A DNA stretch of 64,000 bases from Escherichia coli (GTDB taxonomy: Bacteria > Pseudomonadota > Gammaproteobacteria > Enterobacterales > Enterobacteriaceae): assembly GCF_013315695.1 (NCBI RefSeq), contig NZ_CP054353.1; one strand, given 5' to 3'. A program made the position numbers. Numbering within the stretch: the stretch's first letter is position 1; every line of letters begins with the position of its first letter. Positions 41,701 through 44,700 of the stretch are shown one piece after another.

Positions 41701-44700
41701 AAAACGTATCCATACCCGTGCCATTCACAGCATTGACACTGACATTAAGCTCAACCGCGCATTGTGGGTGATGGCGGAAACCCTGCTGGAGAGCCTGCGC
41801 TGATTCAGCCATTACCCTGAAAACCACGCATTTATTTGTCCTTTAAGGAGTCATTTCATGAAAACCATTTCACATAATTCCACCACATCTTCTGTTTCCG
41901 TAACCGCTGCATCAGGGAATGACCAGCCTCAGTTGGTTGCCACCCTCGTCCCTGATGAACAGCGCATCAGCTTCTGGCCGCAGCACTTTGGCCTCATTCC
42001 ACAGTGGGTGGCCCTGGAGCCCCGTGTCTTCGGCTGGATGGACCGTCTGTGTGAAGACTACTGCGGTGGTATCTGGAATCTGTACACCCTGAACAACGGC
42101 GGGGCATTTATGGCACCCGAACCGGATGACGATGATGACGAAACATGGGTACTGTTCAATGCCATGAACGGTAACCGCGCTGAAATGAGCCCGGAAGCCG
42201 CCGGCATTGCCGCCTGTCTGATGACGTACAGTCATCACGCCTGCCGTACGGAGTGTTATGCCATGACGGTTCATTATTACCGTCTGCGGGACTACGCCCT
42301 GCAGCATCCGGAATGCAACGCCATTATGCGCATCATCGACTGAATGGAGAGAAGTACAATGCAACAGCTTTCCTTTCTGCCCGGAGAGATGACGCCCGGC
42401 GAGCGCAGCCTCATTCAACGGGCCCTGAAAACCCTGGACCGCCATCTTCATGAACCCGGCGTGGCCTTCACCTCCACCCGTGCGGCACGGGAATGGCTGA
42501 TTCTGAACATGGCGGGACTGGAGCGTGAAGAATTCCGGGTGCTGTATCTGAATAACCAGAATCAGCTGATTGCCGGTGAAACCCTCTTCACCGGCACCAT
42601 CAACCGCACGGAAGTCCATCCCCGGGAAGTGATTAAACGCGCCCTGTACCACAATGCCGCTGCCGTGGTGCTGGCACACAATCACCCGTCCGGTGAAGTC
42701 ACACCCAGCAAGGCAGACCGCCTTATCACGGAACGTCTGGTACAGGCACTGGGCCTGGTGGATATCCGGGTGCCGGACCATCTGATAGTCGGTGGCAGCC
42801 AGGTTTTCTCCTTTGCCGAACATGGTCTGCTTTAACCCGTCACAACCACATCACACCTGTTTTCACTTTTATCTTCTGTCTTCAGAGGTATCCCACTATG
42901 AAAATCATCACCCGTGGCGAAGCCATGCGTATTCACCGTCAGCATCCGGCATCCCGTCTTTTTCCGTTCTGTACCGGCAAATACCGCTGGCACGGCAGTG
43001 CTGAAGCGTATACCGGTCGTGAAGTGCAGGATATTCCCGGTGTGCTGGCCGTGTTTGCAGAACGCCGTAAGGACAGTTTTGGTCCGTATGTCCGGCTGAT
43101 GAGCGTCACCCTGAACTGATGTTCCGTCACCCGGAAAACGAGTACGACTGGCTGAGCTCAGACGCCGCTGTGGATGAGGCCCTACTCATCAACGAATACA
43201 CCTTCACCGAAGCCGGTCTGTGCACCGGCTGACCCGTCATCGTTAAACTATCATTCACCGATTTTCTGTGAGGATTTTATCGTGTCAGACACACTTTCCG
43301 GGACAACGCATCCCGATGACAATGACGACCATCCCTGGTGGGGACTACCCTGCACAGTGACGCCCTGTTTCGGCGCCCGTCTGGTGCAGGAGGGTAACCG
43401 GTTGCATTACCTTGCCGACCGTGCCGGTATCAGAGGCCGGTTCAGAGATGCGGATGCGTACCCTCTGGACCAGGCCTTTCCGCTGCTGATGAAACAACTG
43501 AAATTAATGCTCACCAGTGGTGAACTGAATCCCCGCCATCAGCATACCGTGACACTGTATGCGAAGGGGCTGACCTGTGAAGCAGACACCCTCGGCTCCT
43601 GTGGTTACGTTTATCTGGCTGTTTATCCGACACCTGAAACGAAAAAGTAAACCACCAGAATAACCTTCTGCTCCGGCCTGGTGTTTTCACCACGCCACTG
43701 TCCCATTTTTTATCTCTGCATATCAGGAAAATCTTCAGTATGAAAACATTACCCGACACGCATGTACGGGAGGTATCGTGCTGCCCGTCTCCCGTCACCA
43801 TCTGGCAGACACTGCTCACCCGGTTACTGGACCAGCATTACAGCCTTACGCTGAATGACACACCGTTCGTGGATGAACGCGTGATTGAGCAGCATATTGA
43901 GGCAGGCATTTCACTGTGTGATGCAGTGAACTTTCTCGTGGAAAAATACGCACTGGTACGAACTGACCAGCCGGGATTCAGCGCAGGAGCCTCGTCGCAG
44001 TTAATCAACAGCATTGATATTCTCCGGGCTCGCCGGGCAACAGGCCTGATGACCCGCCACAACTACAGAACGGTGAACAATATCACCCTGGGTAAGTATC
44101 CGGAGGCGAAATGATGAAACTGGCCCTGACACTGGAAGCCGACAGTGTTAACGTACAGGCACTGAATATGGGGCGAATTGTCGTTGACATTGATGGTGTT
44201 AATCTCGCTGAACTGATTAACATGGTCTGCGATAACGGCTACTCCCTTCGTGTTGTTGATGAATCTGACCGGACCTCAGCAGACTGCACGCCACCATTTG
44301 TTGCCCTTACCGGCATACGCTGCAGTACCGCACATATCACGGAAACGGACAACGCCTGGCTGTACTCGCTGTCACACCAGACCAGTGACTTCGGTGAATC
44401 AGAATGGATTCATTTTACCGGTACCGGTTATCTGTTACGTACCGATGCGTGGTCATACCCGGTTCTGCGGCTTAAGCGCCTGGGGCTGTCAAAAACGTTC
44501 CGTCGTCTGGTCGTCACACTCATCCGGCGTTATGGTGTCAGTCTCATTCATCTGGATGCCAGTGCCGGATATCTGCCGGGTTTACCCACTTTCGACTGGT
44601 AATCCGGAAATTCACAACATGAAATCATTAACCACGGAAACAGCGCTGGATATTCTGATTACGTGGCTGCAGGACAATATCGACTGCGAATCGGGAATTA

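Follow-up and report, generated by a model that had tools for sequence, protein, structure and literature searches.

The 64,000-nucleotide stretch of Escherichia coli DNA analysed here (the window) contains, at 41858-44602, an antirestriction gene, a RadC-like JAB-domain gene and a type IV toxin-antitoxin pair, and a restriction-like cassette starts 1.1 kb past the end of this interval. This arrangement raises the question of whether an island that counteracts host restriction has been paired with a restriction-type system, as a sequence-only reading of the locus had implied, or whether the two are neighbours by position alone. We find that, in the interval, a CP4-type tRNA-integrating island, in this case a ~77-kb leuX pathogenicity island, ends in a conserved operon of accessory genes. 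With this conserved island-end operon identified, there is little doubt that its adjacency to the cassette is a positional by-product of the insertion of the island at leuX.

Gene content and predicted functions of the module

Every frame in the interval is intact and on the + strand, and translation of these frames gave zero internal stops. The interval is part of a same-strand gene run that is unbroken over 40985-44795 and has the order DUF932, ArdB, RadC-like JAB, DUF987, a relic frame, CbeA, CbtA, DUF5983 and DUF957; all nine module genes, from DUF932 to DUF957, are full length. A consensus scan places a terminator-like hairpin at 40907-40936, ahead of the DUF932 gene, and another at 44844-44870 (+ strand, a pattern match only) that closes the module, so that the two hairpins bracket the gene run. 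In the Pfam scan the module genes, DUF957 excepted, score far above threshold, and the gene calls lie well outside what chance could produce.

The DUF932 gene (40985-41803, +), the first of the conserved terminal module, lies just 5' of the interval. Its product matches PF06067 (E=5e-51) and phrog_12094 (E=1e-127), and it has the PGAP name DUF932 in the closest genome, NZ_OZ547117.1, from which the window differs at only 3 positions between 43000 and 64000. It is followed by genes for an ArdB/KlcA-family antirestriction protein of 161 aa (41858-42343, +; PF03230, E=2.4e-37; phrog_10132, 'anti-restriction protein') and a RadC-like JAB-domain protein of the YeeS/YfjY/YkfG type with 158 aa (42359-42835, +; PF04002, E=1.5e-44), for which a second in-frame ATG is possible at 42344. 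The toxin-antitoxin pair comprises a CbeA (YeeU-family) type IV antitoxin of 122 aa with a GTG start (43282-43650, +; PF06154, E=8e-53) and a CbtA (YeeV-family) toxin of 124 aa (43740-44114, +; PF06755, E=2.5e-60, profile positions 1-112 of 112). The last intact gene of the module, DUF957 (44619-44795, +), is named from the PGAP annotation of the closest genome, in which the protein is identical; this protein has no match in current Pfam. Matches to Pfam and to known structures thus bear out the KlcA/ArdB-like gene, the RadC-like gene and the type IV pair that had been read from the sequence at these positions.

Two further genes inside the interval had gone unnamed in that reading. The first encodes a DUF987 protein (YeeT) of 73 aa (42898-43119, +; PF06174, E=1.5e-40). 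The second (44111-44602, +; PF25638, PF19419) encodes a DUF5983 protein of 163 aa, and its start shares 4 nt with the cbtA stop. K-12 YeeW is a truncated version of this protein, and its 64 aa align to the N-terminus of the full-length protein encoded here. In the scans for other elements, a simple sigma-70 consensus search gave no + strand promoter in 40000-45750, Rfam recovered only IS102/IsrC upstream of Ag43 in the whole window and zero hits in the module, and PADLOC matched no module protein.

The ArdB domain scores 127.4 bits against a PF03230 cut-off of 25 and covers profile positions 1-92 of 92, which places the protein firmly in the family. It matches PDB 2WJ9, the ArdB of E. coli CFT073 (ORF14 of a pathogenicity island), over its full length (E=3.9e-99), as well as the KlcA structure 2KMG (E=1e-20). 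Residues ~26-161 are essentially identical to 2WJ9, bar a few substitutions, whereas the N-terminal ~25 residues are unlike it and the window protein has 4 more residues; residue 154 is N in the window protein and S in both 2WJ9 and the closest genome. The window ArdB belongs to the same family as K-12 YafX and YfjX, and these two proteins and the CFT073 ArdB give relief of type IA, IB, IC and ID restriction in vivo (PMC2836571). By analogy with this near-identical protein, the window ArdB would block type I restriction cleavage and leave modification free as the island enters a new cell.

The RadC-like protein has a JAB domain (PF04002, 151 bits against a cut-off of 22.1), exceeds the TIGR00608 cut-off (149.5 bits against 133.85) and, in alignments, retains an intact metal-binding motif HxHx7Sx2D in the form HNHPSGEVTPSKAD. 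It falls below the canonical RadC/YicR equivalog NF000642, scoring 159.9 bits against 180 and covering model positions 88-211 of 212 only. A canonical full-length RadC/YicR was therefore ruled out, the N-terminal part being absent and the equivalog cut-off missed, and by these profile scores the protein is a short island-type paralogue of the YeeS class rather than YicR. For RadC-like proteins, activity on nucleic acids has been predicted in preference to peptidase activity (PMC5512222), and the protein encoded here is likewise predicted to function in nucleic-acid processing.

The antitoxin and toxin domains score 177.6 bits (PF06154) and 201.8 bits (PF06755), and the two genes are adjacent on the same strand with the antitoxin first, which identifies a type IV toxin-antitoxin pair. 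The sequence-only reading had allowed that these frames might prove disrupted on careful alignment. Both are undisrupted, free of internal stops and full length relative to the characterised K-12 proteins, with CbeA showing 89% identity over 122/122 residues and CbtA 86% over 124/124, gap-free in each case. The GTG start of the antitoxin, proposed in the same reading, likewise stands. The longest antitoxin ORF opens at an ATG at 43174; the family domain starts only 18 residues past the GTG at 43282, and a GAGGA lies 7 nt 5' of this GTG. The RefSeq annotation of K-12 cbeA gives the same GTG in the same upstream context, the YeeU structures PDB 2INW and 2H28 align from residue 1 of the GTG-started protein, and this protein is identical to WP_001295723.1, encoded at the same position in the closest genome.

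CbtA acts through direct, separable binding to FtsZ and MreB, for which the target residues in the K-12 protein are F65 and R15, respectively (PMC5624674). The window CbtA keeps F65 and has Cys at position 15; a Cys at this position is also natural in YpjF and YkfI, toxins that block elongation nonetheless (PMC5624674). Antitoxins of the paralogous pairs cross-neutralise the toxins, and expression of the operons is low and free of autoregulation (PMC5371832). If the pair behaves like its K-12 homologues, CbtA would bind FtsZ and MreB and bring division and elongation to a stop, and CbeA would neutralise this effect. Masuda and colleagues are said to have attributed the neutralisation, in 2012, to bundling of the cytoskeleton by CbeA. 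The role of the pair would most plausibly be to stabilise the island or to delay division.

The island end and its counterparts

A degenerate copy of the 3' end of tRNA-Leu (leuX; the last 23-24 nt) lies at 45294-45316 (+), ~500 bp past the last module gene, and constitutes the right-hand direct repeat (attR) of the island. It is followed at 45317-45358 (+) by the sequence that normally trails leuX, with a terminator hairpin at 45332-45351 (leuX alignment, consensus scan). A search for tRNA genes with ARAGORN gave none in the window because the leuX fragment is too short; it was recovered through a BLAST match to an annotated tRNA-Leu. Two gene remnants, a partial hypothetical protein and a partial helix-turn-helix regulator, mark the island end at 44901-45154 (+; PGAP pseudogenes in the closest genome, coordinates transferred).

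A fuzzy search of the closest genome found three copies of the leuX end, namely the intact leuX, one between a P4-like satellite and a second integrase, and the window copy. These bound a ~10-kb satellite and the ~77-kb island in a tandem stack, with the layout leuX, P4-like satellite, repeat, integrase plus pathogenicity island, module and repeat. The integrase and matching repeat of the island lie ~77 kb upstream of the module in this genome, so that the module adjoins one repeat at the end opposite the integrase. The intervening cargo includes grp, virK/capU/lpxM, the fec operon, Ag43, YeeR and IrmA. Homology to other copies of the module ends at 45315, 45358 and 45363 in three loci, which indicates that the module is the terminal, repeat-proximal operon of the island, far from the integrase.

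Of 5426 complete E. coli genomes, 5150 have a match to the 4.8-kb segment containing the module; the median number of places per genome is 3 and the maximum 18. The module represents the K-12 CP4-44 set yeeS-yeeT-cbeA-cbtA-yeeW in an intact state and shares with it order and strand, the cbtA/yeeW overlap and a position after Ag43 and YeeR. Identities to the CP4-44 proteins are 99% for YeeS, 97% for YeeT, 89% for CbeA and 86% for CbtA, and the 148-aa K-12 YeeS, like YeeT, aligns over its whole length without gaps. Paralogous sets occur in CP4-57 (yfjQ...yfjX-yfjY-ypjJ-yfjZ-ypjF) and CP4-6 (yafX-ykfG-ykfH-yafW-ykfI). The window is fuller than CP4-44, with a YeeR of 840 rather than 510 aa and a YeeW of 163 rather than 64 aa, and IrmA, DUF905, DUF932, ArdB and DUF957 are all present in it; in CP4-44, DUF932 and ArdB have been lost, and yeeR and yeeW are truncated. 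Unlike CP4-44, the window element is located at leuX, and its spacer carries a relic of a DUF8835 gene.

Comparable modules have been described in section 11 of a 2025 preprint (PMC12458937) as 'morons' that combine RadC/ArdB, CbtA/CbeA and DUF proteins beside a direct repeat and opposite the integrase, in tRNA-integrating elements that carry defence or ferric citrate cargo. The window module agrees with these in make-up and in its place relative to repeat and integrase, and its island also has a ferric citrate operon. The defence payload of the published elements lies inside the element, whereas the restriction-like cassette of the window lies outside, past the repeat. The pheV-island paper PMC11537424 leaves the module unmentioned. 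The module is hence already known, as the usual terminal segment of an island type that is common in E. coli.

A plasmid or phage as the source of the module was considered and rejected: plasmid matches are few, several of them to records of multi-megabase size, and the single one inspected (L015) resembles a piece of chromosome filed in the wrong place, while phage records gave a single short match. A related reading holds that the module is an early-expressed establishment operon derived from conjugative or mobilisable elements, which, like a plasmid leading region, would act on incoming single-stranded DNA. Near-absence from phages (of 50,697 records, one matches, and it is short and unannotated) is in line with this proposal, but the island annotation contains no relaxase, oriT or transfer genes, the plasmid matches are of the kind just described, and a published proposal favours mobilisation by a helper phage (PMC12458937). 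We therefore consider such an origin unlikely, though worth keeping in mind.

It might also be supposed that a decayed cryptic element left the module behind as an inert relic, the frames being kept open through recent acquisition or gene conversion of paralogues, and that no product acts. The K-12 paralogues are weakly transcribed and deletion of their antitoxins is harmless (PMC5371832), the integrase of the island is a pseudogene in the closest genome, gene remnants and the 37-codon relic discussed below are found at the island end, and mismatches to the closest genome cluster in 37000-42999 in a manner that resembles conversion patches. Against this, the nine genes are full length, unlike the truncated CP4-44 copy, and 95% of genomes retain the module, in multiple copies. 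Moreover, a near-identical ArdB and homologous CbtA/CbeA are active on expression (PMC2836571, PMC5624674). Inertness of the whole module is accordingly improbable, and we retain the description of the interval as a conserved operon at the end of a CP4-type island.

The neighbouring cassette and the leuX hotspot

The neighbouring cassette (45705-55104, +), treated here as context only, encodes a DrmD-like SNF2 helicase, a type III-like methyltransferase and a type III-like restriction/helicase subunit (Pfam; PADLOC DrmD 4e-199, MTase_III 1551 bits, REase_III 2306 bits), and the SNF2 start codon lies 348 bp from the repeat/terminator block ending at 45358. As the leuX repeat stands between module and cassette, and homology to other module copies stops there, the two belong to different DNA segments. 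The statement of the sequence-only reading that the module sits beside a restriction-type system in the same hotspot is correct as to adjacency, and the hotspot can be named as leuX; the functional link implied by this placement is unsupported, given the intervening repeat and the independent occurrence of the two segments.

This independence is apparent from individual genomes. THO-010 has the order ahr, intact leuX, the same cassette, nanS/nanM/nanC and fim, with no island, and from 45294 on the window is collinear with it at ~97% identity; in blastn, 45294-49403 matches from within the intact leuX at 97.5% identity. Conversely, 2017.18.02CC possesses the module at 99.5% identity and is devoid of the cassette. 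The cassette is present in 147 of the 5426 genomes, and the module, with 5150, is ~35 times more widespread. Other module ends adjoin a type IIS RM system plus McrBC, a decayed integrase plus a type III RM system, kps capsule genes, or ordinary K-12 genes. An antirestriction/restriction pair inherited as one unit is thus not what is observed, since an attachment repeat separates the two parts and each occurs alone.

The module and the cassette are joined in 95-99 of the 5426 genomes. Across the 60 best matches listed, E. coli 042 and an ST648 strain among them, the junction shows an identity of at least 99.8%. Such near-identity suggests that these junctions may descend from few ancestral events. 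A module-bearing island is adjacent in 95 of the 147 cassette genomes (~65%), compared with an island end in 1372 of 5426 overall (~25%), these being raw proportions uncorrected for phylogeny; the near-identity of the junctions suggests that this enrichment reflects shared descent rather than selection.

In the summary given in PMC12707154, leuX is E. coli defence hotspot #37 of Hochhauser et al. 2023, and the same source gives defence genes in the leuX slot of 97% of isolates. The hotspot holds interchangeable defence cargo just 3' of leuX, represented here by the SNF2/type III-like cassette, type IIS plus McrBC, type III and dptFGH, and the window is one more instance of it, with tandem islands between leuX and the cargo. 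As the leuX-proximal slot is a defence hotspot, any island that integrates at leuX ends beside defence genes.

A functional tie could mean, for example, that the SNF2/type III-like system is inhibited or tempered by ArdB or by some other product of the module, or that such a product let the island establish itself in spite of the system. The physical closeness of the two segments, the raw enrichment, the RM systems adjoining further module copies and the five module genes of no known function could all be cited for it. However, the closeness spans an attachment repeat, the enrichment involves a junction that is nearly identical among those 60 best matches and so points to few events, the neighbours of the module vary and include capsule genes, the module far outnumbers the cassette and each occurs alone, and leuX carries defence genes in nearly all isolates regardless. 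Furthermore, the ArdB family is documented as acting against type I systems, and a plasmid ArdB gave no inhibition of type III EcoPI or of BREX in an assay (PMC10149784). We hence regard the functional link with the defence-like operon implied by the sequence-only reading as unsupported and highly improbable.

The preferred explanation remains that of a positional by-product, under which the cassette would already have occupied the leuX-proximal defence slot of the lineage when the island inserted into leuX. More generally, E. coli islands of this very common class have the module at their right-hand end, and the DNA just past it is usually another segment. For this reason an antirestriction gene beside a restriction-like operon at a tRNA hotspot is not to be taken for a functional pairing unless attachment repeats and independent distribution have been checked. 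The notion that the RadC-like JAB, DUF932, DUF987, DUF5983 or DUF957 protein, or the ArdB variant of the window, counteracts SNF2/type III-like systems guarding leuX would, if true, explain both the settling of the island beside such a system and its raw over-representation there, but it is highly improbable.

The relic frame in the yeeT-cbeA spacer

The spacer between yeeT and cbeA measures 162 nt in the window versus 73 in K-12 and contains a 37-codon open frame (43119-43232, +; tblastn, translations), the ATG of which overlaps the yeeT stop (TGATG). Pfam gave no match for this frame, and no annotated gene underlies it among the listed matches (3696 matching genomes). Two 214-aa proteins, WP_000086759.1 and WP_000094916.1, which are encoded upstream of cbeA in two other module copies (L013 and L014), match it at their C-terminus. 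To judge from this alignment, the frame is what remains of the 3' end of a DUF8835-family gene present in other variants of the module. Because the match is to the C-terminus of a protein encoded at that very position elsewhere, the relic points to a gene swap, and the alternative of a new small gene was rejected on the same grounds. Divergence among copies, down to ~87% nucleotide identity, has left the frame open.

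Stacked elements and variable cargo at leuX

In the genome closest to the window (NZ_OZ547117.1), a P4-like satellite lies between the intact leuX gene and the pathogenicity island, at 4228628-4240881, upstream of the part that corresponds to the window; the leuX site therefore comprises three stacked elements. The satellite carries integrase, psu, delta, sid and primase genes, and its variable slot is occupied by a DUF8370 gene.

The slot immediately following the leuX terminator, compared between the window (45359-55500) and loci L002, L007, L008 and L009 from other genomes, contains restriction-type cargo that varies by strain. 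The combination of an SNF2 helicase with type III-like genes is found in the window and in strain THO-010, where an IS5-family element interrupts the methyltransferase gene and the restriction/helicase gene is intact. Cargo of other strains includes a type IIS restriction-modification system with McrBC, an integrase with a restriction-modification system of type III, and dptFGH. Downstream of the cassette, within 55765-56404 (coordinates carried over from the annotation of NZ_OZ547117.1), are the remnants of an HNH endonuclease and of a restriction endonuclease of the phosphorothioated-DNA-binding type, the latter frameshifted and devoid of its N-terminus. These remnants are the residue of previous occupants of the hotspot. 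A truncated nanS gene comes after them.

The Ag43-YeeR-IrmA stretch

Just upstream of the Ag43 gene, Rfam detects an IS102 RNA (34031-34267; 66 bits), and at the matching position in K-12, between yeeP and flu, the small RNA IsrC is annotated. In the stretch 37520-40573, YeeR is full length, with 840 aa where the K-12 protein has 510. Next come a gene of the IrmA family (interleukin receptor mimic; 40118-40573) and DUF905, both of which are absent from the K-12 counterpart island CP4-44.

Sequence variation in and around the module

Between yeeT and cbeA is a 37-codon open frame (43119-43232, + strand), whose ATG overlaps the yeeT stop codon (TGATG). Its sequence shows homology to the C-terminal end of a DUF8835-family protein whose gene, in other variants of the island, lies upstream of cbeA. 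The open frame and the position of its stop are preserved in copies at 87-97% nucleotide identity, and none of the matches listed has a gene annotated under it. The frame is probably a relic, although it may be translated.

Relative to NZ_OZ547117.1, the window shows about 50 mismatches in 37000-42999, grouped in yeeR, DUF932, ArdB and RadC, versus only 3 in the 21 kb of 43000-64000. Judging from this clustering, the mismatches look like gene-conversion patches, for which paralogous copies of the module in the same genome would be the donors.

Module copies in plasmid records

In locus L015 (NZ_LR890315.1), deposited as a 29-kb Klebsiella oxytoca plasmid, the module is followed by kps group 2 capsule genes, and genes for replication or transfer are absent. 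The record appears to be a piece of E. coli chromosome, not a plasmid. Several further "plasmid" matches to the module are multi-megabase records.
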